A stretch of DNA of 63,736 nucleotides, counting the filler, from Halocafeteria seosinensis (Eukaryota): the NCBI GenBank assembly GCA_001687465.1. It is 5 parts of 5 records of this genome, joined end to end, with 100 filler letters (N's around TTAATTAATTAA, not from the genome) between each part and the next. Parts side by side here need not be neighbours in the genome. Positions count along the whole stretch, not along the records: positions 1 to 17,435 come from LVLI01000076.1; 4 more parts are not named here. One strand, 5' to 3'. The position numbers and the translations under genes were made by a program. Each line of letters starts with the position of its first letter. Positions within the stretch are counted from its first letter, which is position 1. The notes under the pieces are model-generated. The model worked only from the letters and a program-made list of their open reading frames with translations, did not search any database and was not told the DNA's origin. Of this stretch, positions 1 through 42,619 are shown in pieces.

Positions 1-32
1 TATCGAGGAAGTTTGGTGTCGCAATCACTTCG

Positions 33-1055
33 TTGATGTTTCGACGCACTCCTTCCTTCCAGTTAGCAGTTGCCCTTGTAGTTCTGTTCCTGGCGTTTGC
101 GCTGCATATTCACTACCAACCTTACATGAGTATGGCGGGGCGGNAAGAAGTGCTTCTACATCATAACAACAAAGTTAACAAAGGGAGTACGAAGCATTTG
201 AACATTAAGCGAATGTATGAAAGTGCCGAAAAAGCTGCACAATCCCGTCGGGAAGGAAAGTCGGAGAACATGGACAAGATCCTCCGCGAAAAGCAAGCCA
301 GATCTGCAAATTTCGTGTTTAACTACAATACAGTGGAGTCGGTTCTTCTGGCATCTGCTGTCTTTGTGGCACTCGGTGGGATCATGTTTCAGAGTAGCCG
401 TTTCGATAATGGTGACGGTGAAGCACAACGAAATGCTTTGGCAATTGCTATTGGTATTGTCATTGCGGCGAGTGTACTGTATTTCTTCGTAGTGTTCGTC
501 GCCGAACTAGGTGCGACATGCAACGTGGCAACGATAACAAGGTTATGCGAGTCGAAGAGAAGCAGGCAAGAGGACACCAGCGTCGGTACTGAATCCAAGC
601 AAGGGGCCGAAATGAATTACAATCCTATGGCGCTAAAGCAGCAAGCGTCAACAAAGTCAGTTAACGAACTTGTTGCAGAGGAGGCACCGCCTGGAAAAGA
701 AAAATGGGAACGTGTGAGATCTTACATCCTAGAAGTGAGAGAGCAAGCGGAGAAACTTCGGGCTGAAGTTGACAACCCAAAACCGGAGGACAACGCTCCT
801 GAAGCGAAATCGGAGAGGACAGTAGAAAGTATGCCCCCAATGACGTCTCAACAGGTGGTTTCCGCCTCCACTCCCGAAGCGGGGTCATCGAAGGTAGAAG
901 AGCCTAGTTTGGTGCAGAATCCTCTTTCCACTGACGCCCGACATACTAGCAACACACGAGTAGTTGCTACCGACGATTCTGAATCTGACGCGTCTTCTAC
1001 GAAAAACCTGCTTGAGGGAGACCATGAACAAGAAGCTAGTGAAACAAAGATGTAG
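33..1055 (+). CDS. C-terminal part of a large multi-pass membrane protein with low-complexity acidic tail
   Basis: 340-aa ORF with three hydrophobic segments, open to the window edge; family not recognised. Confidence 0.6.
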   Translation: MMFRRTPSFQLAVALVVLFLAFALHIHYQPYMSMAGRXEVLLHHNNKVNKGSTKHLNIKRMYESAEKAAQSRREGKSENMDKILREKQARSANFVFNYNTVESVLLASAVFVALGGIMFQSSRFDNGDGEAQRNALAIAIGIVIAASVLYFFVVFVAELGATCNVATITRLCESKRSRQEDTSVGTESKQGAEMNYNPMALKQQASTKSVNELVAEEAPPGKEKWERVRSYILEVREQAEKLRAEVDNPKPEDNAPEAKSERTVESMPPMTSQQVVSASTPEAGSSKVEEPSLVQNPLSTDARHTSNTRVVATDDSESDASSTKNLLEGDHEQEASETKM

Positions 1056-2432
1056 AAGCGTGTACCGCCCTTATACGATTCGTAGTTTCTGCCCAATCAT
1101 TGACTAGAGTAATAAACGTCGAAATAAGACAGTGGGTAATCGTAATTTCATCCCATGCGGTGTACCTGTTTCCTGGCAACTTTGGATAATATCCGCCTTT
1201 ATCTAGTTTCTGGGTAAAATAGCTGCTACACGGCAACCACTGACAAGTACCTTCCACATCCCACCGGTAATATAGATCTCAAGCTTTCAATCGTTTTCCG
1301 ACACATGAGTAAAGCCTTTTGAACGAAGACAGGGAAGATTTGGAACTCTTTTCCCGTTGTTTTTTGTCGGAGGCAAACGTGGCATACCAGGATACTGAGT
1401 TTCTACAGAACCAGAGGTTTCCCGGTGTGTATCTGTCTCAGAGGAAGTGCTGGTTGCCGCTGGATTTCTGGAAGCATCTGAGTAGCCTCCTTGCTGACTT
1501 GCAGAGGACAATCTAGTGCCTGCTCGTGTAGCACTTTCGCACCCTCGTCAGAATTGGTGTACCAGTTGGACTCGATGTAGGACTTCGAGTCCTCGTCAAA
1601 CTTCCCGAAGGGGTAGGAGTCGAACTGGTTGTTAGTGTAGCGCTCTATGTAGTAGTGGACGTGGAGCTGGGACTTCTTGCGAGAATGGTGTTGCTTGTGG
1701 CCATGCGGATCGTTGTCTTTACCACTGATAGTGGAGGATGCAGATGAAACTGTAAGACAGAGAATTCGTTTGGATCCGCCGTAGCTCAAATCTGCTCGAA
1801 CCATCGGAGAGTTGACCGTTGTTCGTAGATAAGTCACCAGAGCTCCCTTCGTCAACGTCGACAGACTCGGTGCCTCCTACCATATGGCAAGCTGTTCATC
1901 GCAGACGTAATATTCCACGTGAATGTAATATACATTCTCTGACACTTCTCTATTTATCCCTCCAATAACATCGCCGGCGGTAAATTCCTCAACGTCCTCA
2001 GAGGGACAACCATGCCCTGAGTACCATCCCCGATACCTCCTCTGCTCTGTACACACTCCCCCCCCGCTGCTCGGCCCATAATCATTCCAATACTGTAACA
2101 GTCCTCAATACGGACTCATCCGCCGTCGGCAGCTGTATCTAAACCTGTATACCTGTAATTTCACCGCTTTGCGTCCCCTTAATATTGCCGGCGGAATAAC
2201 ACTCCCTTATCCCAACGAATCCTACCTTAGAACCTGCCAAAGCATTCAGGATTCCTCTACTTCTGTCTCCAAAAACCTTAAATTCCTCGGTGGAATACGA
2301 TCCACCACCAGCGAATTCGTCAATCATGTTGTACCAGAGAAACCCACAATACCTCCTGACAGGAGCCCGCCGGTCAGGAAGTTGGCGATGTGGCAGGGCC
2401 TCTCCGTGCGTTTATCAAGGTAGTTTGTTCAT

Positions 2433-5213
2433 CTAACCGGTTTGAACGGTCATATCGAAGGGAAAGTTGAACCGATCAAACTGATCCATTGAACGTGCTG
2501 CGGCAGAAGAAGAGACTGCTGTTACATTGCGGGAATCAGAGACCGACTCTGAGACTCCGCTCCGGGCGTTCTCTCCGATATCCTCCTGATTAGCATGCGC
2601 AATCTCCGTCACATCGCGGAGCTGATGTGTCACTTCCTCCAAATGCTTTTCAAACCTTTCCATCCTTTCTGCCTGAGCAAACTGACCGTCTGAGCCTTCC
2701 GGGGCTGGGAGTTGCTGCTGAGCGCTTGACCCCCCAACAATATTCACACCATTGTTTTGATTCTTCTCAACCATCTCTTTCGCGCTTCTTGCTTCTGCAA
2801 GCACGACGTCAAGTTCCCCTCTGAGCGCATCCAATTAATGTTTTGGAGCATGTCCCTTCTCCATTAAATTAAGCTTCTGTTCAAGACGTTCAAGTCTTTC
2901 GCTTGAATCGGCTACTTGCCCTCGGCCGTCACTAAGAGACTTGGCAGATGTACTCCCGCTTCCTACATTGTCGGAACCAACGGCTTCATAGCGGTATCGT
3001 GCAAGAGCTTGGTGGATTAAATGCCGGTCATAGCCCAGCGATTTTAATAACTGCATCGCCGTAACGTCTTCTGGACCTATATCCCCTCGCATACATACTT
3101 TTACAATTGCCATTCCACAAGCAAGTCCTTCTTCCTCATATACATTCGCCGGTAGATCCGACATGATGCGATCACGGATTCGTCGCCAAATATCCCGAGG
3201 TTTTTTTGTGGGGTCCAGTGCATCAATGTGATTTTTCAATCCCAACGTAATATTCCGCGTCACATGCTCGACTAGCCGCATAATTTCGGTGTGAGTGGGT
3301 GCCACTGATAGCAAGTTCTTCATAGCCTGAGTGACATCCAAGTTCACATAACCTTTCATCACAACATGCAATGCGCCACTAATCTGGCTTGCAATTGGAA
3401 CATTTTGAAGCAATGCATTCAGTAAATAGGTAACCATCGATTTCTTCTTGCTGTTTGTGTCGATAGCAACATCACCCGACCGCACACTCATCGCTGCGAT
3501 GAAGTAGTCATACACGATTGAATTCAGTACGACATAGAAGGAGTGCAGCTTTGAATCCGTTTGGATATATGCCAAGACTCTGTCTTCATCCTCTTTCTCC
3601 AAAGCCCGAGGAATTTCATGTCGATGAACGGCTACCCCAGTGTTCGGCAAGACGCGAGTCCGAAGTTCTTCGACTTCTTCCACAGTCAATGTTACGTATT
3701 CTTGCTGCGAACGGCTCGCTGTCGATTCTAAAGTTGCTGCTGTTGGCTCGTAACCGGGCTGGTCATACGATGTATTCACCCTCGCGCCCTCAGAAGTACC
3801 TGATTCTTTGACCCTAGTTTCGTTTTCCCCAGCAGTAGAGTCCGCATTGGTCGTAGATTGTGATTGTTGGCTATGTTTATGTTGCTGAGGCAGCGGTGGT
3901 TTCGGGCTTACTGTTTCTTTGATCCCCTTGCAGTACCGAAGTTGGTGTTAGACGATTATTACTACCACTCTTTCGTTGTTCCTTTTCCTTCTGCCTGATC
4001 ACTTTAGCTTCTCGCTTGGCTCGTTCGGGTTCTTCCTGTAATCAGCAAACCCAAGAGAGAAATCAAAGGGACAAAAATTGGCTCAATACTTAACAACCCT
4101 GGAAATGCACCACCATTACCGGCACGCTAGAAGCGTCAGACCAATAACCAAAATACAAACACGCAACAATCGCAAAGAGTTAGTTCATAATCGACCAGTT
4201 TCACAAGGTTCATCGTCGCAGTGACCTACTCTTCCTCATTCATGCATTCATCTTTCTGTGGTGTGCTCAACCAAAGAGAGCCAGTCCTATCCCACTGGAA
4301 CGAGTTTTGGCAAAACACAAAGGTTGCTTGCTGGAGGGAGTCGTCGTGGTCTTACCTGGTTTCTCTGCTTGACTAATTGCTTGATTGTGTCATCCAGAGA
4401 TTGATTATTGATTGCATTGTCCTGTATATTAATCCAACTCAAAGTCGTATTGACCCGCAAGGCATCCGCCAAATGTTCAGCTCCTGTATCCCCGATTTGA
4501 TTATCATGTAACCAAAGCGCACTCAATGTCGTATTGACCCGCAAAGCATCCGCCAAATGTTGAGCTCCTGTACTCCCGATTCGATTGCGTCCTAAATCAA
4601 TCCACGTCAATGTCGTATTGACCTGCAAGGCATCCGCCAAATGTTGAGCTCCTGTAGCACCGATTTGATTCCCTGCCAACCCAATCCCAGTCAACGTCGT
4701 ATTGAAACGCAGGGTCTCCGCCAAATGTTGAACTACTGTATCACCGATTTGATTAAATCCTAAATAAATCTCGGTCAATGACGTATTGATCCGCAAGGCA
4801 TCCGCCAAATGTTGAGCCCCCGTGGCACCGACTTGATTCTCTCCTAAATAAATCCCAGTCAATGTCGTATTGACCCGCAAGGCATCCACCAAATGTTGAG
4901 CTCCTGTATCACCGATTTGATTCTCTCCTAAATGAATCCACGCCAATGTCGTATTCTTTCCCTCCCGCAAGGCATCAGCTATGTCTTTTGCATCTTTATC
5001 ATCCAAGTTCTTTTGATAAAGATCCCATCCTGTATCCTTATATCCTGGATCATTTCGTCGAATCCGTTCAATACTCGTCTGCACTCTTTCTTCCTGCTTG
5101 GCATCCCTCATGCTTGCTTGGTTGTTGTTCGATGACATTCTTGGCGTCCCGGCGTCCCTCTTGCTCGATGCTGCATTACCCATTGGAGTCCGATGGCAGT
5201 TTTCTTTCTGCAT
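2433..5213 (-). CDS. RI-like (NLRC3-type) leucine-rich repeat protein with C-terminal helical/coiled-coil region, probably multi-exon
   Basis: 28-aa repeats (NTTLTxIxLxxNQIGDTGAQHLADALRV) in 4287-5213; minus-strand donor CAG|GTAAG near 4355 and acceptor near 4037 suggest a link to ORFs 2835-3779 and 2433-2834 (the join is inferred). Confidence 0.7.
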
Positions 5214-5879
5214 ACTCTAGGCAACCCCTTTGTGATCAAGCTCCAAGAATGGGCGTGTCGGTATTGTTCCTACCGGAAGACGTGCCTGCTACAGGCTACG
5301 CCACGCCGTGTGAAGGTGAATCTACCCAACATCTTCACGTCAACGTGACTGACAGAATGGGCTAGGACATACATATGTAGAGGGTTCCTTTCGGGGTTTT
5401 TTTTTTCGCGAGCATGTTCTCTGTCTTTCTCTTTCATGGGGAGGCTGGAGCCCAGCACGAACCAGCAATTCCGGATATGACAATAACCTTGTACAGCTGT
5501 ACTTCAGGATACAGGTACCATCCTAGACATACCGGTAACTCGCTGCGGCAGTGCCCGCGCACGGATGCAGCACTTCTTGCCCTAGTAGTCATGGTACAAC
5601 AAGTATATAGTACCTGTTTCGCAACAAATTAAATCACCGTATAATATTAATAAACCTCGAACTTCCGTAGATGTAATCGAAGCAGAAGAACCCTTGTCAA
5701 TAATTGCAATATACATCCAGCAACATAAGGGGAATGCTGAATTCGGAGTTTGCTATCACACAAGTGACAAAAAGTTTGTGCCGTTATCGCAAAATTAAAG
5801 TTTTGGGATAAATGTTACCACAATACTGAATTTATCAGTACAGTAATTTTTGTCCGTAAGAGATTGATTTTGGATTTCG

Positions 5880-6242
5880 CTGGCGTTTATATGTTAATGC
5901 CATATTGCCCCGCAAGGCATCTGCGAAGTGCTACTCCCGTATTCCCAATTTCATTCCGTGACAACCAAATCTTAGTTTGTGTCGTACAACCGTACCGGAA
6001 GGCATCCGCCAATGTTGTTCTTCTGTAACACCGATTTGATTCCTTAGTAAATGAATCCTAGTCAATGTCGTATTGATACCAAGGTATCGGCTATGCTTTT
6101 TGCATCTTTGTCATCGAGGTTCTTTCAGAAAAATCCCATCTTGAGTCATCAATAATATCCTGGGGATCTTTTTGTCAAATCCTTTGAATTAACGTCTGCA
6201 CCTTGTCCTCCTCTTGCTCGGACGATTGATATGCGATGCCAT
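5880..6242 (-). pseudogene. Decayed paralog of the 5' part of the adjacent LRR gene
   Basis: 6035-6142 aligns by eye with 4915-5032 and contains indels and stops. Confidence 0.7.
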
Positions 6243-6305
6243 TCTTATTCTTGTTAAGTAGGCAGCATAGAGTACACTATGCCCTATATGGTGTGTTGAG
6301 TGGCT

Positions 6306-6383
6306 TGTAGCGCGCCGAAGACCCCTCCATAATGTTATAGTATATATACTATAACATTATGGAGGGGTCTTCGGCGCGCTACA
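6306..6383. repeat. Perfect 78-bp palindrome at the host/PLV junction
   Basis: tgtagcgcgccgaagacccctccataatgttatagtata followed directly by its exact reverse complement; centre 6344/6345. Confidence 0.97.
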
Positions 6384-6439
6384 CGTAGGGTGAAAAAAAA
6401 GATTGTTTGATTAAAAAAGTAAAGTTATAGAAGGAAAAG

Positions 6440-7277
6440 TTAAGATAATTATAGTAGTTTTACAAATAAAAGTAATAATTCAAATAAACGCCAATAATTG
6501 TAGAATTAGGAAAATCCATTTACACAGAAGAATTGTAGAAGAAAGTTAGAAAATTCATCTACATAGAGGAGTATTGAAGGGTAATATACAGGAAGGTTGC
6601 ATCACCATTTAAAACAGCCTAAAAATATGATAAATATAAATACTTTTACGATAGAAAATAACTAAAAGCATTAACAATTAAACGATAAGTAATCCCCAGA
6701 GAAATAGGGGTTTTGAAAGGTTCCCAAAATAGAGTTAAACATTCTATTAAAGATTGAACATATTTTTTGAGAACCGTTTTTTTAATATATCAAAAAAAGT
6801 AGCCCAGTGAGTGTTTAACGCCAATAATTATAAAAGTTAACATAATTATGATAGTTTTAGAAATAGAAGTAATAATTCAAATAAACGCCAATAATTATAG
6901 AATTAGGAAAATCCATTTACATAGAAGAAAGTTAGAAAATCCATCTACATAGAAGAATACTGACGGGGTAATACGTAGAAAAGTTAAATAAAAGGCTGGT
7001 TAGTCTTAACGCCAATCAAGAACTCACAGAAATAATACCGGCGGATTAATTACAAAATACAATAAGAAAGAATATTAAAGGGTAATATACAGTAGACTTA
7101 TGAAATCGTTATAATTGAAGCTTAAATGAGATGATAATGAAAACTTTTGAAGTAGAAATTAAAGAAAAGTGTTTTAAAATGAGATAAGAATAATCCTATA
7201 GGAATAAGAGTTTTAGGGGGTTCTCAAAATAAGGTAAAACATTCTATTAAAGATTGAACATATATTTTGGGAACCGT
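6440..7277. repeat. Two imperfect direct copies of a ~400-500-bp AT-rich subterminal unit
   Basis: aagtaataattcaaataaacgccaataatt at ~6470 and ~6867; aaacattctattaaagattgaacata at ~6737 and ~7237. Confidence 0.85.
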
Positions 7278-7398
7278 AAAAATTAGAAAGATAAATAAAG
7301 CCCCTCTTGACGTATATGGGATAACTGAAAAAAAGAAGAATGAGAAAAGAAAAATGGAAGTGGTGTTTAAAACTAATAAACAACACTTACAAATAGAA

Positions 7399-8403
7399 TT
7401 AAATAAGTTTAAGCTTCAAAGAATTCAATTTTCGTAATAATTCCTGCTTGGTTAAGTCTTTTGAATTTACATCTCCATATGGTAATTCTTCTTCCTTTCC
7501 ATTTACTTTCATTTTTATTTTATATTTGTGTATACCGTCATTAGCTTTTCTAACGCTAACGATTTTAACATCTTGTTTTCTATTACTTTCTTTTCCTGTG
7601 TCCTCTTCTTCAGGTTTAGTCTTTTTGGATTTATCAGTGCTACTATCCTTACTATTAAGTTCATCTTTCAAATCACTCTTAATATCATTACATACTGGGT
7701 TAAATTCGGTATCTTTAAGGCGTCTCTTAAAATCATTTTCACTATAATCCAAACAAAAGAATTTAAAATTTTCATTAACAGCGTGTCTAAAAGCGCTCTT
7801 GAAATCTTCTTTAGAAAAACCATTTCCGTGCTCATTAAACAATGTGTCTAATTCTTTATCATTAGCATTAAATACTAAAACTAAATTACTGTTGTTCATT
7901 CTAGAAGAAGGGTTTAAATCTGTATAGCGTTGGGCACTAGTTATAACACTAACATTATAATGACGGGATGTGTTATAAAGTCTATTGATAGCATTATTAG
8001 AATGTTTTTTCATTACGTTTTGATGTATCAAATCTTCAAAAATAAACAATGAAGGTTTTCTAGTCTCTTGCATTGTATCAATCAAATCATTAACAGTATC
8101 ATTACTATAATCAGAAAAAGTTTTTAAAATAAATTTAGGTTTAAGCCTTTGGTGTGCTCTTTGATATTGTTCAATAGTAGTAGCAGTCCCACTAAAAAGA
8201 AAAACAGCACTCAAAGCATCCTTGTAATAATGAAAAACCAGTCTCTTAATGATATGACTTTTACCAGCCCCACTACTACCACTAACAACAGCACGTAAAG
8301 GAAATAACTTTTTAAAAGGTTCCTTTATTTTCTTTGTGTAATCAATTTTCTTACTATCATCTTCATCCTTAATATCTATATCCCATAAGCTGTTCTTACT
8401 CAT
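7399..8403 (-). CDS. A32-like (FtsK/HerA superfamily) DNA packaging ATPase
   Basis: Walker A GSSGAGKS, Walker B-like LFIFEDL, SRHYNVSVITSAQ motif, followed by RMN. Confidence 0.9.
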   Translation of the reverse strand: MSKNSLWDIDIKDEDDSKKIDYTKKIKEPFKKLFPLRAVVSGSSGAGKSHIIKRLVFHYYKDALSAVFLFSGTATTIEQYQRAHQRLKPKFILKTFSDYSNDTVNDLIDTMQETRKPSLFIFEDLIHQNVMKKHSNNAINRLYNTSRHYNVSVITSAQRYTDLNPSSRMNNSNLVLVFNANDKELDTLFNEHGNGFSKEDFKSAFRHAVNENFKFFCLDYSENDFKRRLKDTEFNPVCNDIKSDLKDELNSKDSSTDKSKKTKPEEEDTGKESNRKQDVKIVSVRKANDGIHKYKIKMKVNGKEEELPYGDVNSKDLTKQELLRKLNSLKLKLI

Positions 8404-8457
8404 ATCTATATAATAAGAGTAGAATAAATTAATTACTTTAGATGTGAAAGTAATTAA

Positions 8458-8670
8458 TTAATAGAGGTAAAACCCAAAAGAATAAATGACCATATTTAGA
8501 GGAGGATTACTATCATTATCAATACGTTTTAAATCTTTACAATTCAGTCTATGGTTAAAATGATTAGANTTNCTNATTTTCTTATTACAATAACTACATT
8601 TTCTAAATCTTGAAGGCTTTTTGATATCAAAGATTGTATCAAAGCTTATATCGTATTTTTCCATATCCAT
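8458..8670 (-). CDS. Small putative zinc-finger protein
   Basis: CSYC...H...C pattern; contains ambiguous bases. Confidence 0.5.
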   Translation of the reverse strand: MDMEKYDISFDTIFDIKKPSRFRKCSYCNKKXXXSNHFNHRLNCKDLKRIDNDSNPPLNMVIYSFGFYLY

Positions 8671-8690
8671 ATAAAATAAATCTATATATA

Positions 8691-10061
8691 TTATTTTGAT
8701 GAGGCCGCTGCTCCAGATTTTGATGAGGCTGCTGCTCCTGATTTTTTTGATTTTTGGACTAATGCGTTTTTTCTAGCCTTCCTCTCTGTATTGGGTGATG
8801 GAGGGCCTTTCTTTATATTTGTTTGTTGTGCTTCTCTTTCCGTTCTTCTTCTCATCTTATGAAAAATAGTAGTATATTTAATATCTTTTCTCGCTTTTTG
8901 CAATTCTTTTTTTGATCGGCCTTTATCCAATAGTGTTCTATATAAGTCTTCTTCTGAAGCAGTACTTAATGTTAAACCCTTGTTAGTTTTTAGTTCTTGT
9001 TTTTCTTCTTCAGTCAATAACCCCCATAATTCGTTTTTATTTGTTCGTGGGTCGTAATTATATTCTCTCATAAATTCGTTAACATCTTTTTCAAATTCTT
9101 TTTGGGCTTCCTCCTTACTAAGCCTTCCTTTTTGTGTTCCATCTGCTATTTGTGCTAAAGTTGATGAAGAAAGTTTAGATTTTTCTCCTTTACCACTTTC
9201 ACCTTCTCCACCTTCAAAACCTTCACCTGAAGCTTCACCAGATGCTTCACTAGATGCTGCTGCACCCTCTCCTACATCACCTTCTGAACTACTCATAAAC
9301 CGCATAACATTACTACCGGGTATTTGTTGAAAGGAAGCAGTTGATGTATTTAAACCACCTCTAGTTTCATTTCTTACTAACTGCCCATTTCTAACTTGGG
9401 CTTGCCCAAATGGTTGGGGTTGAGAAGTATTTGGTTGATTAACCATATTTGTTGCACTTTGAACATTTTGGCTTTGTGTGTTGATATCTTTTGGTATTAA
9501 ATCGTTAGGGTCTATTTGATTAACAGCAGCTATATTAGCAGCTAAATTCCTTAACTCAGTATTACTCATATTATCATATCTTGGTTTATGCAATCCATGA
9601 CTTTTAAGTCTATTCAAGATTTCTTCTCTTGTGTTTCTTTGTGGGTCGTTTTTATCCTGTATTTCTCTATTATCAAGGAATTTCCGTAAAGCATCCATTA
9701 TTGGAGGTTTTCCTGGTTTCGTATTAAATGTATCCAGTTTTCCTGGTGTTTCATCATCTCTAGGGTCTATCACTTGTATTTCTTTTGTAGTATCAACATC
9801 TTCTACTTGTAATCCCCTATAATCTACTGGAGGAGGAATTCTATAGTCATTAAAAAAACCGTGAGGGTTATATGGAGGAAACAAATTAGTATCCATATTA
9901 TTGGAAGGCAAGTATGAAGGATATAAAGTTTCTCTATTTCCATCAGTCTCTGTGTTAGAGATTAAATATCCTTCTTTATCAATAATTGTTCCATATTTAT
10001 TTTCCCTTTCTATTGTTTGAAAATTATTTTCACTACCTCTAGTATAACCTTTTTTAAACAT
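8691..10061 (-). CDS. Hypothetical PLV protein (456 aa), low-complexity middle and basic C-terminus
   Basis: Long ORF in the AT-rich element with an upstream TCTA motif; no recognised domain. Confidence 0.7.
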   Translation of the reverse strand: MFKKGYTRGSENNFQTIERENKYGTIIDKEGYLISNTETDGNRETLYPSYLPSNNMDTNLFPPYNPHGFFNDYRIPPPVDYRGLQVEDVDTTKEIQVIDPRDDETPGKLDTFNTKPGKPPIMDALRKFLDNREIQDKNDPQRNTREEILNRLKSHGLHKPRYDNMSNTELRNLAANIAAVNQIDPNDLIPKDINTQSQNVQSATNMVNQPNTSQPQPFGQAQVRNGQLVRNETRGGLNTSTASFQQIPGSNVMRFMSSSEGDVGEGAAASSEASGEASGEGFEGGEGESGKGEKSKLSSSTLAQIADGTQKGRLSKEEAQKEFEKDVNEFMREYNYDPRTNKNELWGLLTEEEKQELKTNKGLTLSTASEEDLYRTLLDKGRSKKELQKARKDIKYTTIFHKMRRRTEREAQQTNIKKGPPSPNTERKARKNALVQKSKKSGAAASSKSGAAASSK

Positions 10062-10282
10062 TTTCTTTTATATTATATTATTAGATATTATTATTATTTT
10101 TTAATATTCTATGTGCTAAATTATATTTCATTGGTTGAAAGAATTTTGCTAGAGTTAAATAGTATAAACCATAAAAGAAGCCCATAACAGTTCCATTACA
10201 CTCATTTTTTACATCTCTTATTTCATTGTCCGTAATTCTATCCATTTTCTATTTACTATATATTATAGTAGATAGAAAATTA

Positions 10283-11017
10283 TTAAACAAAGTTATCTAT
10301 AGAATGGATTTCTATCAAGTTCTTATTTTCATTTATCTGTAGTGTTTTCACTTCTGCTTTTGAAAACAAGGGTGATAAAATGCTCACCGGGTCAGCCGCA
10401 GTTCTAATTATTGTTATGTTATTTTGATTAAATTTAGTAAAGTTCCTTCTAATATCATTTTGATTAAAACCTGGGTTGAAAACAATAACATCATTAACAT
10501 TGTCTTTTAGTGCATTTATGTTAAAACATATATTTCCACCTAGAGAATGCCCTGTAATAGTTATCCTTGAAGGATTGTAAAATCCTACAATACTATCATA
10601 TTGTTCTAAATCTGTTTTAAATCTTCCTGTTGATAACTCATTACCTTTACCAAGCTCATAATCTGTTATAACATCTTTAATACTCTTTGTTCCTCTATAA
10701 CCTATAATTAAATGATTAGAATTCTTATCTAAATAAACTGCTGTTGATGTATCACTTCCTCTATCTTGTAGTTCAAAATTACCAATAAAAGGTTCTCTAT
10801 TTGTTTTGTAGCTTTGACTACTCACCTTCGCAGCAGTTTGTTCTAAATCACTCATTTCATCAATACTCTCTATTTTGTTTTTATTGAAAATATTTAATTT
10901 ACTAATACCTTGTTTTACCTTCTCAATTGAACGTCCTATTTTTTTTCTTCCTCTATTAAATAACCTACCTACACGTTTAGCAGTATCCCGTATTTTTCTA
11001 CCTAATTTATTAACCAT
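10283..11017 (-). CDS. Class 3 lipase (alpha/beta hydrolase) with basic amphipathic N-terminus
   Basis: IGYRGT, GHSLGG nucleophile elbow, FNPG, DPVS, and C-terminal HSIDNF. Confidence 0.88.
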   Translation of the reverse strand: MVNKLGRKIRDTAKRVGRLFNRGRKKIGRSIEKVKQGISKLNIFNKNKIESIDEMSDLEQTAAKVSSQSYKTNREPFIGNFELQDRGSDTSTAVYLDKNSNHLIIGYRGTKSIKDVITDYELGKGNELSTGRFKTDLEQYDSIVGFYNPSRITITGHSLGGNICFNINALKDNVNDVIVFNPGFNQNDIRRNFTKFNQNNITIIRTAADPVSILSPLFSKAEVKTLQINENKNLIEIHSIDNFV

Positions 11018-11101
11018 TATAATAAGTTATGATATTTATTTTTATTATATCTATATAACAAAAATAAATAAATTAGATACCAACACTAACAACTCTCTCA
11101 G

Positions 11102-12403
11102 CTATTTGACCACACGCTTATGAATGGTATAGATATAAATGTTATGAGGAGAAGTTATATTACTACTCAAATTTAGTGAAATTTCCAATTGAGAACCTCC
11201 AGAAGTAGTAGATAAAGCATTGTTTAAGACTTCGGGATTAACGTGGGGGAGTAATTCGGTATTTACGCATAAAGGAGTATGAGTATTTTTGAAAGTATCG
11301 TAATCTAGGAGACCATTTCCTCCAATATCTGTAAGGAAGCCATATAATTTTCTGTAATTACTATAAGCTTCTTCTAAACCTTGAATACCATCTCTAGTTC
11401 CTAAATCAGTAGAATTAAACCTAACATTATAACTTTCTAGATTAGGAAGATTACATTTAGTGATATTATCAGTGTCTTTATCATCTTGTTTAGGAAATAC
11501 CAACATACAAATACCTTGCAAATTAGAATACTGGACTTGAAGAGTTAAGTTAAATTCTTTCTGATTTTGAGGAAGAGTCCTTTGAAAAACGTCAGCTGCA
11601 CTATCCAAAACAAAACTCAAACCAGTAGGATTATTAGCCATTCTATCATAATATCCTTTAACAATATCATTAGAAGGAAAAACCCATTCCGCCATAAATT
11701 CAACATCTACTAGTTCATAATCAACCGTATCACCTCCTGCTGTGGTTCCTGCTCCGGAAGGTTCCATTACTTTAATAGCTTGGGGCAGCTTATACCTTAT
11801 TTCAATAGGAAAATAAGCAGGCATATACATAGAACCTCTAAAAAAGGCCGTATTATCTAATGGAACAGTCATATTAACAGGTGTTGGATTACTTTGGGTG
11901 TCTTTGTTAGTGAGTAAATCTTTAGTGACTGTATTGCCAGAGCCTAAATATTTCCAGGACTTTTGTAAAGCATTTAGCTCTGCATCGTAATGATTTTGAG
12001 CAGCTGTTCCTAAATATAAATGCTCACCATAACGTGCTCCTTGCTCTGCTTTTTCTATAATCTGGTCTCCCATCATAATTTCTACATCATCATTAAAAAC
12101 CATCCCACCATCAGATGGAATGTATTTGAATTTTCCAGGATTGTTGCCATCGTCTGAACTTTTATTCTTAAATTTAAATCTTAAATATGAATTATGCCTA
12201 TCTAAAAATGCAGTTGAAGATTGTAAATTGAATTGAATTTCATCCCCCGGTCTATATGGTCCTTTTCCATTAATAGGAATACGATTTCTAGCTTCCCTAG
12301 AATTCAAACTATCTAATATCTTAACATTAGAAGGTTGAAGACGGTTATCAAAATGATATTGGGTTGTGCGTTCACTTTGTAATTGTGTTTCTGATGAAGC
12401 CAT
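11102..12403 (-). CDS. PLV-type double jelly-roll major capsid protein; true stop probably at 11073 after a 1-nt frameshift
   Basis: N-terminal PINGKGPYRPGDEIQFNL..AFLDRHNSYLRFKF pattern, size, and position between penton and lipase; adding one A gives the C-terminus KRVVKIAERVVSVGI*. Confidence 0.8.
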   Translation of the reverse strand: MASSETQLQSERTTQYHFDNRLQPSNVKILDSLNSREARNRIPINGKGPYRPGDEIQFNLQSSTAFLDRHNSYLRFKFKNKSSDDGNNPGKFKYIPSDGGMVFNDDVEIMMGDQIIEKAEQGARYGEHLYLGTAAQNHYDAELNALQKSWKYLGSGNTVTKDLLTNKDTQSNPTPVNMTVPLDNTAFFRGSMYMPAYFPIEIRYKLPQAIKVMEPSGAGTTAGGDTVDYELVDVEFMAEWVFPSNDIVKGYYDRMANNPTGLSFVLDSAADVFQRTLPQNQKEFNLTLQVQYSNLQGICMLVFPKQDDKDTDNITKCNLPNLESYNVRFNSTDLGTRDGIQGLEEAYSNYRKLYGFLTDIGGNGLLDYDTFKNTHTPLCVNTELLPHVNPEVLNNALSTTSGGSQLEISLNLSSNITSPHNIYIYTIHKRVVK

Positions 12404-12477
12404 AGTTTATTATATATTTTAAATAGAAAAAAATATATAATTTATATTCTTCAAAAAACCAAGCTAATCTATATTAT

Positions 12478-12714
12478 TCACCCAAAACCACTTCTATCTA
12501 AAGTTGAACTTATATTGTCTCCTGCTTGAATTAATCTATCTGCTCCAGTTCTTCTTTCTAGTTCATTAACTGCTTGTCCTACAACTGGAATGTCTTTAAT
12601 TTCATCTAATTTCTTCCTTCCCGCTTTCCAAGCGGTGTTTAAACCTCTACCTGCTTTTTTAGCTAAACTGCCTATCTTTCTACCTGCTTTGTTAATATAC
12701 GTTTTTAACGACAT
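12478..12714 (-). CDS. Small basic amphipathic protein (candidate virion core or membrane-active peptide)
   Basis: 78-aa K/R/G-rich ORF with upstream TCTA-N7-TATATA. Confidence 0.65.
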   Translation of the reverse strand: MSLKTYINKAGRKIGSLAKKAGRGLNTAWKAGRKKLDEIKDIPVVGQAVNELERRTGADRLIQAGDNISSTLDRSGFG

Positions 12715-12793
12715 TGTTTTAACTTATATATTTATTGTAGATAATTATATAATTTCTTATAATTTTTATTAGATAATAACAAAAATTATAACT

Positions 12794-13006
12794 TTAATCT
12801 GCTTTTTCTAGTTCATAAGTTTCTTTATGTCTTTCATAATTATTAATCATTGCTTTCATTTGCTCTTCTGGTATACCTAAAGGTTTAGGTAATCTATCAA
12901 TTATTTCACTATGTTTCTTCTCTAGTTCATTATGGTTTCGTATCATTGCATTATAATCTTTAACCTTATCATTTCTTCCCTTTTTACTTCGTTTGTGTTT
13001 TCCCAT
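12794..13006 (-). CDS. Small basic hypothetical PLV protein
   Basis: 70-aa ATG ORF with upstream TCTA-N8-TATATA. Confidence 0.6.
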   Translation of the reverse strand: MGKHKRSKKGRNDKVKDYNAMIRNHNELEKKHSEIIDRLPKPLGIPEEQMKAMINNYERHKETYELEKAD

Positions 13007-13050
13007 ACTCCTATATACTATATGTTAGAAAAATTATTTTGAAAAATAAA

Positions 13051-13268
13051 TTAACTAGTTTTATAAAATTCGAATTCCAAAATTACATTGCCTCCATTGA
13101 GGGATACAATTCTATAATGTTCATCTCGTATTTCTATATCAAAATTATCTATCAATCCATTGTTTATTTCAAACCAAATCATATCATCGTGAGGGAAATT
13201 ATCATTAATAATATCCCCAAAACCCACTCTATTAAGGGCTGTATAAATAATGGGCACCGATTTTTTAA
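13051..13268 (-). pseudogene. C-terminal fragment of PLV minor capsid (penton) protein
   Basis: IDNFDIEIRDEHYRIVSLNGGNVILEFEF resembles single jelly-roll penton C-termini; the 5' part is replaced by GC-rich hairpins. Confidence 0.65.
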
Positions 13269-13344
13269 CCGGGGTTGACACCCCGGCCGGGCTTCAAGCC
13301 CGGATCGCCGGCCCGGGCTCCCTTCCCGGGCGACCTGCTGCAGG
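13269..13344. repeat. GC-rich cluster of tandem hairpins
   Basis: ccggggt-tgac-accccgg, ccgggctt-c-aagcccgg, gcccggg-ctccctt-cccgggc, cctg-ctg-cagg. Confidence 0.9.
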
Positions 13345-13700
13345 TACACTGCTACTACAGCTACTTTCATCAATTATATAGGGTTATATTCCCTAGGATA
13401 CCTTATTCATAAAATGGTGAATGGAAGGAAGAATGTCGTGCCGAAGTTTTAGTATTCATGAGACAGCGTCTTTGGTGTATGCCAGACGGATTCGGCCGGT
13501 GGAGTGCGCGCATGGAGGGTTGGATCTCTGTTACATACGAAATATTTGGTGTTGAAGGGGAACCTATGCCGGTGAAAGTGAATCGACTGCATAGAAGGTG
13601 GGTGACTCGTCGACCAGGTTGGGAAGTGCCCATGAGGAGTGGTGTACAAACTGAAGCACCGGGAGTCTGGAGGATCTTTGTTATAGTTAGAGATACAGGA

Positions 13701-15735
13701 ACTACTATTGAACTATTTGGAGCTTGCGATGATATGTGAAGGCGAGCAGAAGAAGAACGGCATATGGAGAAACTCGGCAGGTTTAATTTCGTAACTCTTT
13801 CGCGGTTACTCAACCCGAAGCCAACGAAAGGATCCTCATTGTAAATACGGAACCTTTGGAATACAATGGAATGTGAGCTATCGATTCCTAGGGGCAGAGA
13901 ATACCGGGTGAGTCTCGCTCACCGAATCCGTAGCCTCTTCGTTATGGACATACCCTGGGGTTGGTAGATAAATAAATCACGGAACCGATTGGGAATGATA
14001 ATGCACCGCTAAGCTCAGCAACTACAGTTCAGAATACCATTGACTATAGCCTGGAGGATCGGGAATATGGAGAGAGTATTTGTGCGCACCCAGGGGGACG
14101 TCAACGCTACTAAGTTAGTGTAACATACCCTCGCACTAATTGGACCCAAGAAGAATCAAGCTTGGGAAATATGCCCTGGGATTGCTGTACTTCCATTCGA
14201 TGTCTGACGATTATTCCTTGATATTCTGAGCATAATAAGGAGGACGACTACTATTGAACTATTTGGAGCTTGCGATGATATGTGAAGGCGAGCAGAAGAA
14301 GAACGGCATATGGAGAAACTCGGCAGGTTTAATTTCGTAACTCTTTCGCGGTTACTCAACCCGAAGCCAACGAAAGGATCCTCATTGTAAATACGGATCC
14401 TTTGGAATACAATGGAATGTGAGCTATCGATTCCTAGGGGCAGAGAATACCGGGTGAGTCTCGCTCACCGAATCCGTAGCCTCTTCGTTATGGACATACC
14501 CTGGGGATGGTAGGTAAATAAATCACGGAACCGATTGGGAATGATAATGCACCGCTAAGCTCAGCAACTACAGTTCAGAATACCATTGACTCGATAGCCT
14601 GGAGGATCGGGAATATGGAGAGAGTATTTGTGCGCACCGAGGGGGATGTCAACGCTACTAAGTTAGTGTAACATACCCTGCGCACCAATTGGATCCAAGA
14701 AGAATCAAGCTTGGGAATATGCCCTGGAATTGGTATACTTCCATTTGATGTCTGACGATTATTCCTTGAAATTCTCAGATAGAAAAACAAGAGAGCGTTT
14801 AGGACCGAATGTGAGCTAACGATTCCTGGTAGTTGGGAAATAAGCTTTCCGAGTGTTCCTCCTCCACCGACTCTGTAGCCTCTTCGTTATGGATATGCCT
14901 TCGGGTTGGTAGACTAATAAGTCACGGAACCGCTTGGGAATGCACCGGTAAACTCAGCAGCTGCAGTTTAATATATTATCAACTAGAGGATGTCAACATT
15001 CCTTCGTTAGGGTAGCATACCCTCGCACATATTGGATCCAAGAAGAATCAAGCTTGGGATATATGCCCTGGGATTGGTATACTTCCAGTTCCGTATACCA
15101 TTGACTCAATAGCGGAAGGGGATGTCAACTCTCGTTTGTTAGGGTAGCATACCCTCGCACTTATTGGATCCAAGAAGAATGAAGCTTGGGAAATACGCCC
15201 TGGGATTGGTATACTTTCATTTGATGTCTGACGATTACTCGTTGATATCCTGAGCAACAAAATAAATAATAAGAGAGTGTTTAGGACCGACTGTGAGCTA
15301 TTGAATCGTTTTAGTTGGACAAATAAATCACGGGACCGATTGGGAATGCACCGCTAAGCTGAGCAACTGCAATTCAGTATACCATTGACTAGGGGATGTC
15401 TACTCTCGTTCGTTAGGGTAGCCACCCCTCGCACTAATTGGATCCAAGAAGAATCAAAGTCGGGAAATATATTGTGCAGGAGATTTCGAATGAGTCTCGG
15501 CCACCGACTACGTAGTCTCTTCGTTATGGATACACCGTGGGATTGGTATACTTCCATTTGATATCTGACGATTATTCGTTGAAATTTTTAGCAACAAAGG
15601 AAGAGAGCGTTTAGGACCGAATGTGAGCTAACGATTCCTGGTAGTTGGGAAATAAGCTGTGCAGCAAATTCCGGTCGAGGCTCGTCCACCGACTGCATAC
15701 CCTCTTCGTTATGGATATGCCTTGGGATTAGTTAC
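13701..15735. repeat. Complex satellite: 546-bp duplication followed by shorter shuffled, diverged modules
   Basis: actactattgaactatttggagc at 13701 and 14247; modules ttggatccaagaagaatcaag and ctcttcgttatgga each recur five times. Confidence 0.9.
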
Positions 15736-15740
15736 ATACT

Positions 15741-16088
15741 ATGCTTGAACGAAAGAAAGAAGTGATCGACACCCTAATTGGATTCGTCGAATCTGAATTA
15801 ACTAGAAGACGAAGATCAGATGAAGATGGAAGGTTTCGGGTAGCAATTAGTCCTTTTCGGGAACCTCGCGGGTGGATTTGTCGGTTTCAGAAAGACCAAA
15901 ATATTCGGGACCAGCTCCGAAGACTTCCGTTTGTCATTAGGCAGGCAGCGTATACTGGTTTCAGAGCATGTCTAGCGTACTGGAACACAGAAGAGCATTT
16001 TGATTTAGTAACAAGAGCTGTTGTGCGTTACTTGAGAAAGCAAGGGTACCGAAAAGCTGCCAACTATCTTAAGAGGAATCCGTTCTAA
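15741..16088 (+). CDS. Hypothetical basic protein (115 aa)
   Basis: Clean ATG ORF right after the satellite; no recognised motif. Confidence 0.4.
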   Translation: MLERKKEVIDTLIGFVESELTRRRRSDEDGRFRVAISPFREPRGWICRFQKDQNIRDQLRRLPFVIRQAAYTGFRACLAYWNTEEHFDLVTRAVVRYLRKQGYRKAANYLKRNPF

Positions 16089-17208
16089 GATATAAAATGG
16101 CGAAAAACGGTCGGTAAAAGCAATACTAATACCACGCTCTCGTTCCTAGACCAAGATGCGATTTTGGCTGGCACGACAGTAAGTACGTTAATTGTAGCGT
16201 GGTATCCTTTACACGCACGCGTGTATAATAAAGGAGCGCATCCTTACATGTAATTTGCCCTTTAATTGCTGTCCATTTCGGCATTTAGAATGACTTTGGA
16301 CTCTCCTGATGCAGACCGTGTGGGGCTGCGCCGAACGAATCAATTCACTGGGACAAGTTCATGCATCACGAATGATTGAATCATGGGACTTCTGGCAGAG
16401 TCGATGTAAACAAGTGTTTGCTTTGCTCTCCATTCCGTGGTACTTTGTGGATACTATTAACGCCACGTGACCGAGGCGAGTCGCCGAGAGCCCATGGACA
16501 CCACCGCCGCCGGGTTTGACTCGTGGTATAACGAGTTTCAAGAAACGCATCTTGGGAACATTAAGGAGATATCCATCTCTCAGGTAACAAGGAAACTGCT
16601 GAAAACAACGGAGCTGCAAAACGAGGAAATCTTCCGGAGCATACCGGATCAATATAAGCGGCCACGGGCGCGCATTTCTGGTTCTGCCGGAGAACAACGT
16701 CGCTTCAATAACGAAGACTTGTCAGCACCCCATAATGCCATCCACTCAATCCCCGACTCGTTATTGCTCGGGCAAGCAAGCGGAACCGAAACGTCAAATC
16801 CCAGGACGTCCTCCAGGCGATTTCGTGACCGAAACGACTGTAAAGCATCTGCAGCATGTAGACAATTATGTACCGTGTTGCCCGTTGCGAGGACCAAGAG
16901 GAAATCCTCGGAGAGTTGGGCATCATTGAACGGCAGACACAGGTACTGGTAGAGAAAGCCCGAAATCGTTCCCAAACACGTACGAGGAGGAGGCAATCAT
17001 GTATAGTTGACCCCTACCCGAGTGAACAGGGACGTAGCGCCAGTAGCACCGCTCGTTGTCCTTTGGCTGTTTCAGAATCCTTGGCTTTTACAGATGCCGC
17101 GTACGTCGTTGGAAGTGATACTCCACAAGGGCATCCTACGTCGGAGTATTGTGATACTCGTACAGATCCAGATATTCACGTAACCAGCGAGTCGCTAAGC
17201 AGCGACCC

Positions 17209-17406
17209 GCAGCACCGTTCTGCCCATGGTGAAGGCGAAGCTACGGGCACAGTTCGGGATTGTTATACCACTCTCAGTCATAATAACTCAGTAAATAATA
17301 GAAGCCGTCCACAGCGCCGTTCTGCCCATGGTGAAGGCGAGCGTACGGGTACAGATCGGGAGTGTTATCCCACTCTCAGTCATAACAACTCAGTAAATAA
17401 TGGAAG
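17209..17406. repeat. Two imperfect 102-bp tandem copies
   Basis: ccgttctgcccatggtgaaggcga...cactctcagtcataa repeated in frame within ORF 16868-17435. Confidence 0.85.
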
Positions 17407-17435
17407 TCGTGCTACTCTTAGGAAGAGTACTGGAT

Positions 17436-17535: not shown

Positions 17536-18417
17536 ACAGGTTCAGAGTCTTTCGTTCGCCATTGTAAAGTGTCCTTCCACTAGAGAGTGATTCCATAATC
17601 CGTTGTTCATCCGAATTCAAGGCTAACCGATCCCGTCCCCCCGGTATGTATCGTGAACCATTATAGTGCGAGTTTATATATCCACCCTCGAAAATATCGG
17701 TAAAAGACTGCAGTGAGTGATAAAACTCTTCCGACCGTTCCTGAGCTTCCTGGTTAGACAGGTAAGCAGCCTGACCATTGCCTCCATTGGCTGCACTGTT
17801 GTTGTTACTTGCTTCCGCTGTATTGGAAAACGACGCGACTCTTCCGTGATGGTAGCACTTCCTCTGTACCGTCAATGAGCTATTTGCTTCAAAACTTCGC
17901 CCTCTTCCATATCCTTCTAGAAAGGCACTTGCTTGCCTCGCCTTGGCCATGCGGTAGCGTAGACACCTCATGCTGTCTGGGTAATAATGATGTAATACAG
18001 TTCCTACTGTGGTTTGCCGGGGTCCCTGTAAGGCATACTTTAGCATTTTTTCATGTTTTCTTCTTCTTCAAAAGATCATTCATGCGTTCAATGCTCAACA
18101 CACTACTGATTCAACAAGTCGAAACGTTGTGTGTCATCAATAATACCTCCTGTAGGCCGTGCATACATATAAAGCTGACGTCAAAAAAGTGTCAGTCGTA
18201 CTTCAACAAGGTAAACAATTCGTTGCCTTTGGTGGACCTAGTGAGCTTCACAAAGCAAAAGCACCACTTCATTCTAGCGCTGTGTGTATTCTAGCGCTTG
18301 TATAAAGCAGTTTGTGCAGATGTGATGGGTTATAGGAGTACCCAGACTCCTGCGTTTATCCCTACCTTTTAGGATGTTTACCTCATTGGAAGAAGAGTAC
18401 TTGCTGGCCTTGAAAAC

Positions 18418-20995
18418 ATGGGACGCCATGGGGCTACCTTCAATGAGGTTATGGAGGAGCCCACAAGAGCCATGGGGTACAAGAAGTTCCTCCAGATTCT
18501 CAAGCCGTACTTCGCGCCCCGAAACGTGTCGGATCGTATCCGAGCGTTTGCGTGCTTTGCATGCTTGGGAGCGGCTAAAGTCTGCAGCATTATGGGACCA
18601 GTTTACTTGGGGAATGCCACTGACGAATTAGCAGCGGGAACATTCCCTGCCACTTCCCTAATACTATTTTCTGGGCTGATATTTGGATCGAAAGGCTTCA
18701 ACGAGTTACAGCGGATTATTTACCTGAGAGTAAAAGAAGTGGCAGGTGTCGAATTGGCGGAAACAGTAAGTCACAACAAGTTGGTCCTCGTCAATGGTGA
18801 TGTTAGTGCCTCATGTTTCACTACTCTCCGCAGTCTTTTGCTCATGTGCAAACCTTAAGTTTGAATTGGCATCTAACAAAGAAGTCTGGTGTTGTTTTAC
18901 GAGCCATGGATCGTGGGGTACAAAGCGCGTCTACGGTGGTAGATATGCTATTTCTTCGACTCGTGCCTACCGTCGTCGAGTTGCTCGTACTTGTAGTGAT
19001 CTTCGCCACGGTATTAAATGCTCCGTGGCCGTCTTTGTCGCTCTTTATAGGGTTTAATTTTTTTGCGGTAGTTACATACTTGTTGACCAGATGGCGGCGA
19101 AAGATCAAGACCCGCCGGAATCGCGTAGGTACGTTTGCGCACTCAGCTCTTCGTTCCTATCTGCGGAACATAACCAGCTATGTCACTCATCGCAGATAAT
19201 GAAGCGAATCAGAGAGCCATGGAGGCGTTAACTAACTTTGAAACTGTCAAGTATTTCACAAATGAAAACTACGAGTTGGACCGGTATTCTGATTCGATGA
19301 GGAGGTATATGAGAGCGAGCAAGCAAGCTGAAGTAAGAAGCAAATAGTTGGCTGTTAGACTACATGGATTGCATTGACGCTTCTATTTTCATTGGAAGCG
19401 ATTACAGTATTCTCTTGGTTCGCTCCATATCCTCCAAGAGCTCATCATGAAACTAACTCAATTGAGTGTATTACTGCTTGCTGCTCGCCAAGTCCTAGAT
19501 GGCCCAACTACGGTTGGTGACTTTGTCACCATTAACTCGTACGTTGTGCAAGTATTTATCCCCTTGAGTTTCCTCGGAACAATCTACGGGTACGTTGGTT
19601 CGCGGTGGTATTGTCCATGAAATTATTTTCCGGGGAACGTTACCGTACATGCTCACTTTTGGATGCGTCAGCGTATTGATCAATTCTTACACCGACATGA
19701 CGAATCTCGCTGACTTGTTGGAAGAGAAACCTGACGTGACAGATAAGCCAGATGCGATTAACTTTTACGTGAATCCTTCGAAAGGGGCAGAAATAGAATT
19801 CAAAGACGTTTGGTTCAAGTACCCCCAAACAGTGCGTTATATTCGTTCGTCAAAGTGTTTCGTACAGTCCTTTTGACTGGGTGTATCAATGGGACACAGA
19901 GAGGCACCATCGTGGATACTCGAGACGAATACAGAGAGGGAGAAGATTTGGAAGGGCAGCGCGAGAGTATTGGAAAGAGTGAACCAAGCAAGTCGAATAG
20001 TGCAAAGGGGAAGACTGAGCTAGAAACAGCTCCCTTGTCCAAGAACATCGAAGTGAAGGTGGGAGAAGAGGAGGAACCCGAAGAGCGTTATGTCCTGAAA
20101 GGTATCAGTTTCAAGATCCCTCCTGGTACGACAACTGCTGTTGTTGGACAAACAGGTTCGTATCGTTTCTGATTGTGTGACGTACTCTTGTTTCTTCCCT
20201 TCGTAGCGACATCTGTCTCTCCTTCAGGTGCGGGCAAGTCCACATTATCGCGTCTTCTTTTCCGCTTTTTTGATGTTTCTCAAGGCCAAGTACTAATTAA
20301 TGGATACGACCTTCGAGACCTTACTCAAAAGAGTTTGAGGCAATCTCTGGGTATCGTCCCCCAGGATACCACATTATTTAACGATACTATGGGTAGGTGG
20401 CGCTTTAAGCTGGTGTTGGATTCGTCAACGCAAAGAAGAATGTTGCTTTCCCCTGTGTCCAGAATACAATCTTCGATACGGAAAACCAGAAGCCTCCGAA
20501 GAAGAGTTAGAGAAGGCTGTTTCCGACGCATCTCTTACTGAATTGATTCGACAGCTCCCGGAAGGATATGAGAGCCTGGTAGGGGAGAGAGGCCTTAAAC
20601 TAAGTGGTGGAGAAAAACAGCGTGTGGCCATTGCACGAACATTGCTAAAGGATCCTCCAGTTCTAATTCTTGACGAAGCGACTTCTTCACTCGACTCACG
20701 GACAGAAGCGGAAATCCAAGATGCAATTGCTAAGGTGCGAAGTGGACGCACAGTTTTGATTATTGGCCACAGGTTATCAACTATAGAAGACGCTGATAAT
20801 ATTTTGGTCCTAGACGAAGGCAAGGTCGTAGAGAGTGGAAATCACGAGCAACTTCTGGAGAAGAGGGGATACTATTGCTCACTATGGGAGCAACAGGTTT
20901 ATGGAAAGCAACAGAAAGACACAAACGCTGATGATGACGACCAAGAGAATGCCACCGTGAATGCCAACCACCACACCGAAAATGGCAGACTTTGA
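18418..20995 (+). CDS. ABCB half transporter, ATM1/HMT1 (ABCB6/7)-like, copy 1, multi-exon
   Basis: TMD motifs ([20 protein letters not shown]), intron-split Walker [37 protein letters not shown] introns. Confidence 0.92.
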
Positions 20996-42301: not shown

Positions 42302-42394
42302 GTGGTTGTGAAAATTACACTTAAATTTACACTCAAAATTAACTTTTAAATTACACTCAAAATTTCATTTTTAAATAAGTAGCTTGAAAGCGAA

Positions 42395-42542: not shown

Positions 42543-42619
42543 CGTCATTGAGCGAGGCGTCATTGAGCGTCCTATTCTTATTATTATATTTTCTCTAAAT
42601 AGAAATTTTTATAATTAGT

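Follow-up and report, generated by a model that had tools for sequence, protein, structure and literature searches.

The genome of Halocafeteria seosinensis (GCA_001687465.1) contains an AT-rich block of minus-strand genes that is almost certainly the morphogenesis module of a Polinton-like virus (PLV). The block lies within positions 1-17435 of the window, the whole stretch of 63,736 nucleotides analysed here, in which contigs are joined by N-flanked spacers. Signals of giant-virus type are present at its gene borders, with hairpins after six of eight gene ends and a TCTA motif before five of seven gene starts, and transcription of these genes by a giant virus is probable. The full chain, in which the capsid-building half of an integrated and truncated PLV would be transcribed by a giant virus as virophages are, has a somewhat better than even chance of being correct. 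The terminal palindrome, the 3' hairpins and TCTA carry mechanistic information and were absent from an earlier note on this DNA.

Genes of the capsid-building block

The earlier note had described a co-oriented, intronless, AT-rich block abutting GC-richer DNA, and this description holds. The GC content is 0.297 in 6384-13248, against 0.469 (1-6305) and 0.465 (13346-17435) in the flanks, with composition change points at about 6393 and 13252. Seven ATG-started open reading frames (ORFs) and one start-less frame are all on the minus strand and without introns. A mitochondrial-type RNA polymerase, encoded on a different contig, marks the host as eukaryotic, presumably a protist. Contigs of three runs, X1, X2 and X3, were compared with the block, whose genes are the following.

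7399-8403, minus strand: A32-type packaging ATPase, 334 aa (Pfam Pox_A32)
8458-8670, minus strand: small ORF, 70 aa, Cys/His-containing, crossing three N (ORF call)
8691-10061, minus strand: low-complexity charged protein, 456 aa (ORF call, X1 variants)
10283-11017, minus strand: class-3-lipase-like alpha/beta hydrolase, 244 aa (Lipase_3 and alignment with solved lipases)
11073-12403, minus strand: double-jelly-roll (DJR) major capsid protein (MCP); the ORF stops at 11102 and the last 11 codons (11108-11076) are in another frame
12478-12714, minus strand: basic protein, 78 aa, with an amphipathic N-terminal helix (ORF call)
12794-13006, minus strand: basic protein, 70 aa (ORF call)
13051-13248, minus strand: putative penton, a 65-codon C-terminal gene fragment without a start

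The MCP (11102-12403) has no Pfam match. Its AlphaFold2 (AF2) model, made from a 21-sequence alignment, reaches pLDDT 84.8 and pTM 0.83, and a Foldseek search of the PDB with this model gives E=2e-17 to an iridovirus capsid and 263 matches at E<=0.001; every one among the matches listed is a DJR capsid. The model superposes on PBCV-1 over 349 residues with Z 28.0 and rmsd 3.2, and on the capsids of faustovirus, Sputnik and mavirus with Z 26.9, 20.3 and 19.1, at a sequence identity of 7-12%. The DJR capsid that had been proposed at 11102-12403 is thus supported by the predicted structure, including the Foldseek check suggested with it. One MCP gene is found in the retained block; Trimcap PLVs have three divergent ones, and Maverick-Polintons and Gosseviruses are recognised by a core gene for a cysteine protease and an MCP of GKS1/Polinton type. 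Among 1.84 billion proteins, 23 representatives match the MCP at E<=0.001; three close relatives are 77-83% identical, and two distant relatives (2 of 19 tested) touch Pfam Capsid_N. In a tree of this family, which holds no named references, the window copy groups with P0001-P0003 (99/99) and then with P0004-P0007 (100/100); the contigs of P0003, P0005 and P0006 are 8.5-10.7 kb long. The family is small and could not be placed in one of the named PLV groups (Trimcap, Alpensee/GKS2, Zephyr/VC40, Zora, TSV). It may already be covered by the hidden Markov model (HMM) set of 10.64898/2026.06.19.733378.

The MCP ORF is 10-11 residues shorter than those of all close relatives. The lost tail is encoded in another frame at 11108-11076, where 10 of 11 residues are identical to P0002 and P0003, and the hairpin of this gene lies 2 nt past the stop of the relatives, not that of the window ORF, which supports a frameshift. 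The frameshift reflects either decay or an assembly error.

Could the block instead be a piece of a giant-virus genome or of a true virophage? Its cis signals are of virophage type, the structures that match its capsid best come from Nucleocytoviricota, and this label is also carried by several look-alike clusters of the Atlas. Nevertheless, the MCP matches no virophage or nucleocytoplasmic large DNA virus (NCLDV) capsid family of Pfam, including the Sputnik MCP family, whereas the real virophage MCP of the window (44559-46313) matches the latter at E=3e-21. The MCP shares no more than 13% identity with any solved capsid, the module is compact and no cysteine maturation protease is found in the block, so that this origin is highly improbable.

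The ATPase matches Pfam Pox_A32 at E=4.7e-6 (26.7 bits, cut-off 22.8) and has four relatives at 55-66% identity, three of which carry PF04665; the Atlas matches of one relative are A32 clusters. Its earlier identification as an A32 ATPase is therefore retained. The lipase-like protein matches Lipase_3 at E=5.6e-4, which is below the cut-off, and its GHSLGG aligns with solved fungal lipases (E=0.0015). The N-terminal helix of this protein is basic and amphipathic, with a hydrophobic moment of 0.92 and 15 K/R in the first 45 aa. The 456-aa ORF has no Pfam or PHROG match below E 0.01. Among its 26 listed X1 differences (from a list of 40 of 238 difference rows), third codon positions account for 18 (P=2e-4); 17 are synonymous, a stop arises from none, and the frame is open in the variant contigs, so that this is a real gene; its product is possibly a virion core or scaffold protein. 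The 78-aa protein, with pI 10.3, a hydrophobic moment of 0.77 and no Pfam match, is a candidate membrane-lytic or core protein.

Signals at gene ends and gene starts

Six AT-rich hairpins were found within 70 nt past a stop codon, with a stem of at least 12 bp, at most one mismatch and a loop of at most 8 nt.

7358-7388, minus strand: 3' hairpin of the ATPase gene, 12-bp stem, 7-nt loop
8424-8462, minus strand: 3' hairpin between the small ORF and the ATPase gene, 16-bp stem, 7-nt loop
10244-10280, minus strand: 3' hairpin of the lipase gene, 17-bp stem, 3-nt loop, 2 nt past the stop
11033-11070, minus strand: 3' hairpin of the MCP gene, 18-bp stem, 2-nt loop, 2 nt past the relatives' stop
12409-12441, minus strand: hairpin enclosing TCTA upstream of the MCP gene, 13-bp stem, 7-nt loop
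12757-12791, minus strand: 3' hairpin, 15-bp stem, 5-nt loop, 2 nt past the stop

Their stems measure 12-18 bp, and three of them (stems 15, 17 and 18; loops 2-5) begin 2 nt past the stop. Dinucleotide shuffling yields a mean of 0.22 gene ends with such a hairpin and a maximum of 3 in 1000 rounds. Control tiles contain none, be they viral non-coding (0/11), viral coding (0/48) or from the host flanks (0/119). At the gene starts, TCTA begins at -20, -23, -24, -24 and -27 in five of seven upstream regions. The observed positioning in the interval from -30 to -20, which was picked after inspection, is reached in 0 of 5000 shuffles, and a motif-agnostic null reaches it in 15 of 2000. None of the seven starts has the early promoter AAAATTGA upstream.

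In Mimiviridae a hairpin is the poly(A) signal and is cut by a viral enzyme (PMC4402537), and 16 genes of Sputnik terminate in hairpins (PMC6723459). For Cafeteria roenbergensis virus (CroV), TCTA within AT-rich DNA serves as the late promoter, and for mavirus as the promoter (PMC5294985, PMC8547959); the motif also marks the type of endogenous mavirus-like element (EMALE) that is reactivated by CroV (PMC10945749). Since Sputnik and mavirus tap giant-virus transcription through hairpin 3' ends and TCTA late promoters, expression of the block probably depends on a giant virus. In an intact virus, the late RNA polymerase of a co-infecting giant virus, probably a member of Imitervirales, would start at TCTA in AT-rich DNA, and the hairpin-cleaving and poly(A) enzymes of this helper would end each monocistronic late mRNA at the post-stop hairpin. 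The MCP and the penton would form the shell and the ATPase would fill it, while the lipase and the basic amphipathic peptides might aid membrane crossing or entry of the particle. The palindrome at the left border would be a genome end, acting as a fold-back primer or an integrase site. The other end would have been lost together with the replicase and the integrase, leaving a copy that is inert or dependent on intact copies.

Several points weigh against this scheme. The 12-bp stem threshold was set after inspection of the data, and two of the eight gene ends, those of the 456-aa ORF and the putative penton fragment, have no hairpin. The occurrence of TCTA at any place within 50 nt upstream of the start does not exceed chance (P=0.15), and neither the lipase gene nor one of the small ORFs is preceded by the motif. 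In the gaps before the MCP and the 78-aa ORF, TCTA forms part of a hairpin, so that the two signals cannot be counted as independent. Hairpin 3' ends are known also in pithoviruses and iridoviruses (PMC11814242). The break in the MCP gene may be an assembly artefact, since short-read assembly often introduces false frameshifts into multicopy PLVs (PMC10120064). Lastly, no complete genome of a relative was found; searches of viral, metagenome and prokaryote collections, which were weak scans with a few exact peptides or one DNA motif, confirmed no locus of the relatives, and the phage collection gave no match.

Alternatively, an integrated, truncated PLV might be read by the host nucleus in the manner of TsV-N1, with the signals serving roles of the host or of their own, or arising as by-products of short, very AT-rich spacers. 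PLVs of TSV type are nuclear and lytic (10.64898/2026.06.19.733378), and the presence of TCTA alone is not above chance. Such an explanation has to cope with the lack of hairpins in all 11 tiles of an equally AT-rich viral non-coding kilobase, and with three hairpins placed exactly 2 nt past the stop, and we consider it unlikely.

Transcription by a giant virus, if true, would give the two short signals, which can be read from DNA, a wider use. A scan for gene-end hairpins and late promoters could sort thousands of uncultured PLVs into helper-dependent and autonomous ones, and the same scan could predict the helper group. No report of late TCTA together with hairpin 3' ends in a PLV was found in the literature, most subscription journals lying outside the scope of the search; PMC12085832 discusses end hairpins of giant viruses only.

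Borders of the block and its probable integration

The features at the two borders are as follows.

5859-6216, minus strand: left host flank, decayed copy of the leucine-rich repeat (LRR) gene at 4287-5213 (profile match and self-comparison)
6306-6383, no strand: perfect 78-bp palindrome, 39-nt arms, no spacer, AT-rich centre (arms 100% complementary)
6384-7357, no strand: AT-rich non-coding end region with degenerate direct repeats (self-comparison)
13249-13345, no strand: 68% GC cluster with four short hairpins at the break (z about -5)

The palindrome has a folding energy of -47 kcal/mol (z -15.5, reached by 0 of 200 shuffles). From its position and from the palindromes published for elements of this host (10.64898/2026.07.28.741278), it is likely the left terminus of the virus. 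In Halocafeteria virophages and PLV subtype 4, palindromes lie in terminal repeats beside target duplications, and hairpin-primed replication has been proposed for palindromic ends (10.64898/2026.07.28.741278); a terminal palindrome as such is hence a known feature. Rfam candidates for it, mir-H11 (57 bits, cut-off 70) and MIR169_8 (51 bits, weak), were rejected, as any perfect AT-centred hairpin fits these models. The adjoining 6384-7357, with direct repeats at 6435-6586/6832-6973 and 6569-6777/7070-7277, is likely one terminal repeat. X1 contigs join 6353 to 7016 (skipping 6354-7015) and 6541 to 6932 (skipping 6542-6931), which indicates that the end region varies among copies and that the palindrome arm is joined to viral DNA in more than one form.

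At the right border, the earlier note had seen a single-jelly-roll penton at 13051-13268. A minus-strand frame does exist there, although it lacks an ATG and is viral only as far as 13248. The penton label found no support in five tests: no longer homologue was found among 21 candidates, the single-sequence model reaches pLDDT 45, there is no PDB match of note, and the fragment shows no similarity to the virophage penton of the window. The 65-codon frame (13051-13248) may resemble penton C-termini. One X1 contig departs at exactly 13248 and is followed by at least 255 other letters, of which the first 10 codons are stop-free (read by hand; weak evidence). Because the frame lacks an ATG, GC content jumps at 13249-13252 and the X1 contig continues otherwise at 13248, this copy looks as if it were cut off within the gene of the putative penton. 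ORF calls, Pfam and PHROG revealed in the block no protease, no replicase (pPolB, SF1/SF3 helicase or AEP) and no integrase (RVE or tyrosine recombinase); the earlier statement that the replication module is missing from this copy is borne out, and truncation in the putative penton gene appears to be the cause.

That the viral DNA is truly integrated is quite likely. Otherwise, amplification or assembly might have fused to host DNA a sequence that stems from other loci or from a virus that infected the cell or was ingested, and the palindrome would be a fold-back artefact. In favour of this, the window is made up of contigs with spacers between them and includes ambiguous bases, assemblers cope poorly with palindromes and repeats, variant contigs of the viral genes are numerous in X1, and none of the contigs displayed bridges the junctions. 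Against it, X1 has a second form in which a contig connects the palindrome with viral DNA at 7016, and the 60 bins across the two junctions are all covered by X1 contigs. A virophage remnant is also located between host genes elsewhere in the window, on a different contig, and co-integration of virus and virophage in protists is documented (10.64898/2026.07.28.741278); such a chimera is accordingly improbable. X2 and X3 contigs do not cover the viral genes, and their cover of the host is patchy too, hence they were not used as evidence of an empty site.

Integration has its own difficulties. The junction-spanning check that had been proposed at about 6300 yielded no bridging contig, and among the contigs displayed none bridges either junction (260 and 567 further records). 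The two block ends have no inverted match, and the search for a target-site duplication (TSD) gave two chance 5-mers only; absence of a second inverted repeat and of a TSD is expected if the right end was lost. The earlier proposal of a divergent PLV in a protist genome thus stands as to a morphogenesis module in eukaryotic DNA, by the predicted capsid fold and the ATPase, with integration likely and the penton putative.

A further possibility is a natural capsid satellite of about 7 kb without a replicase, bounded by the palindrome on the left and the GC-rich hairpins on the right and copied by helper machinery. Strong secondary structure is present at both ends, and PLV-sized viruses without detectable replication genes exist (VC40; 10.64898/2026.06.19.733378). 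This satellite is very unlikely, given that the rightmost gene is start-less where another X1 contig continues differently, that X2 and X3 tie the GC-rich cluster to the downstream repeat, and that no sequence is common to both ends. Specifically, X2 and X3 contigs join the last hairpin of 13249-13345 to 13355-13541, so that this cluster, which has no Rfam match, probably belongs to the neighbouring repeat and not to the virus. A bolder version, in which a PLV lineage yet to be named is a capsid-only, hairpin-ended, replicase-less giant-virus satellite that combines CroV-type TCTA with mimivirus-type hairpins, is copied by fold-back and has an end motif in common with the resident virophage, is a long shot. 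Its milder form, a PLV of ordinary size with both late signals, is much more likely and has slightly the better side of an even chance.

Known relatives and neighbouring sequence

The integrated, truncated PLV preferred here resembles other PLVs (Polisuviricotina), which are endogenous in protists (PMC10120064, PMC7805220), in its DJR MCP, A32 ATPase, putative penton, lipase-like protein and low-GC block in host DNA, whereas complete PLVs measure 14-40 kb (PMC12220804) and about 7 kb is left here. Endogenous PLVs occur widely among protists (PMC10120064), lipases are frequent in this virus group (10.64898/2026.10.13.758929; PMC7805220; 10.64898/2026.05.28.728513), and the replication strategy of most PLVs is unknown (10.64898/2026.07.28.741278). 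In Halocafeteria seosinensis itself, PLV subtype 4 and virophage subtypes 1, 2, 5 and 6 likewise have a terminal palindrome at the insertion edge, and those elements share with the present one the low-GC insert in a host of 47% GC, the joint occurrence of PLV and virophage remnants and truncation by repeats (10.64898/2026.07.28.741278). The palindrome of virophage subtype 5 has 52 nt (10.64898/2026.07.28.741278) against 78 nt here, a likeness by description, and unlike these subtypes the present block shows one end only and no TSD.

TCTA in AT-rich upstream DNA is shared with mavirus and type-4 EMALEs, and hairpins after stop codons with Sputnik; unlike both virophages, the block has a capsid outside the virophage family and no protease was found in it. 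Both signals occur in one element here, whereas elsewhere, in the sources available, TCTA is tied to CroV and mavirus and the hairpin to mimivirus and Sputnik. Helper-dependent PLVs are known (Gezel-14T, 10.1101/2022.07.28.501842; 10.1101/2025.10.09.676808). Gezel-14T (PgVV) also has co-oriented monocistronic genes and a lipase, which is a virion component there. Its dependence on giant-virus transcription is demonstrated, while that of the present block is suggested by the signals; it uses the early AAAATTGA promoter, which is lacking at the seven starts here, and its description does not mention hairpins or polyadenylation (10.1101/2022.07.28.501842). Endogenous PLVs, PLV lipases, terminal palindromes and virophage-like PLVs are all published. 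The present copy is an ordinary endogenous remnant of a known type of virus; it is broken, its capsid lineage is sparse and unassigned, and its regulatory signature can be tested.

A second AT-rich island of 32% GC, at 42100-47500 on another contig, is a virophage remnant that ends at the contig gap. Besides its Sputnik-type MCP (44559-46313), it encodes a penton that is split between two frames, 43266-43970 and 43997-44500, and at 42620-43168 a GIY-YIG nuclease, about 45 nt upstream of which lies the early promoter AAAATTGA. Three exact copies of one 10-mer are present: one across the left junction of the PLV (6301-6310), the others at 42405-42414 and 42511-42520, where each unit of a 42-bp direct repeat on the left edge of the virophage carries one. 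It may be an end or target motif common to PLV and virophage; its count with one mismatch allowed is not above chance. Pieces of 37-52 nt (6348-6384, 6405-6452, 13444-13495) are found inside unrelated DNA in X2 and/or X3 contigs and could be captured viral scraps or ends of related elements.

On the left, the viral block lies about 60 bp upstream of the apparent start of the decayed LRR paralogue, and the LRR gene at 4287-5213 is intronless. The right flank is an array of degenerate repeats: nested degenerate tandem repeats at 13350-15730, with a 546-bp duplication of 97% identity and shorter units of 67-90%, adjoin the break point and occur in all three runs. A 54-nt piece upstream of the LRR gene (5260-5313), found also at 37729-37780, recurs in many different contexts in X1-X3 and is likely a short host repeat or regulatory element. 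Further along the window, 18297-27472 comprises about 2.5 tandem copies of a 3.7-kb unit, 94-96% identical, with an intron-containing gene that, judged by eye, presumably resembles an ABC transporter.

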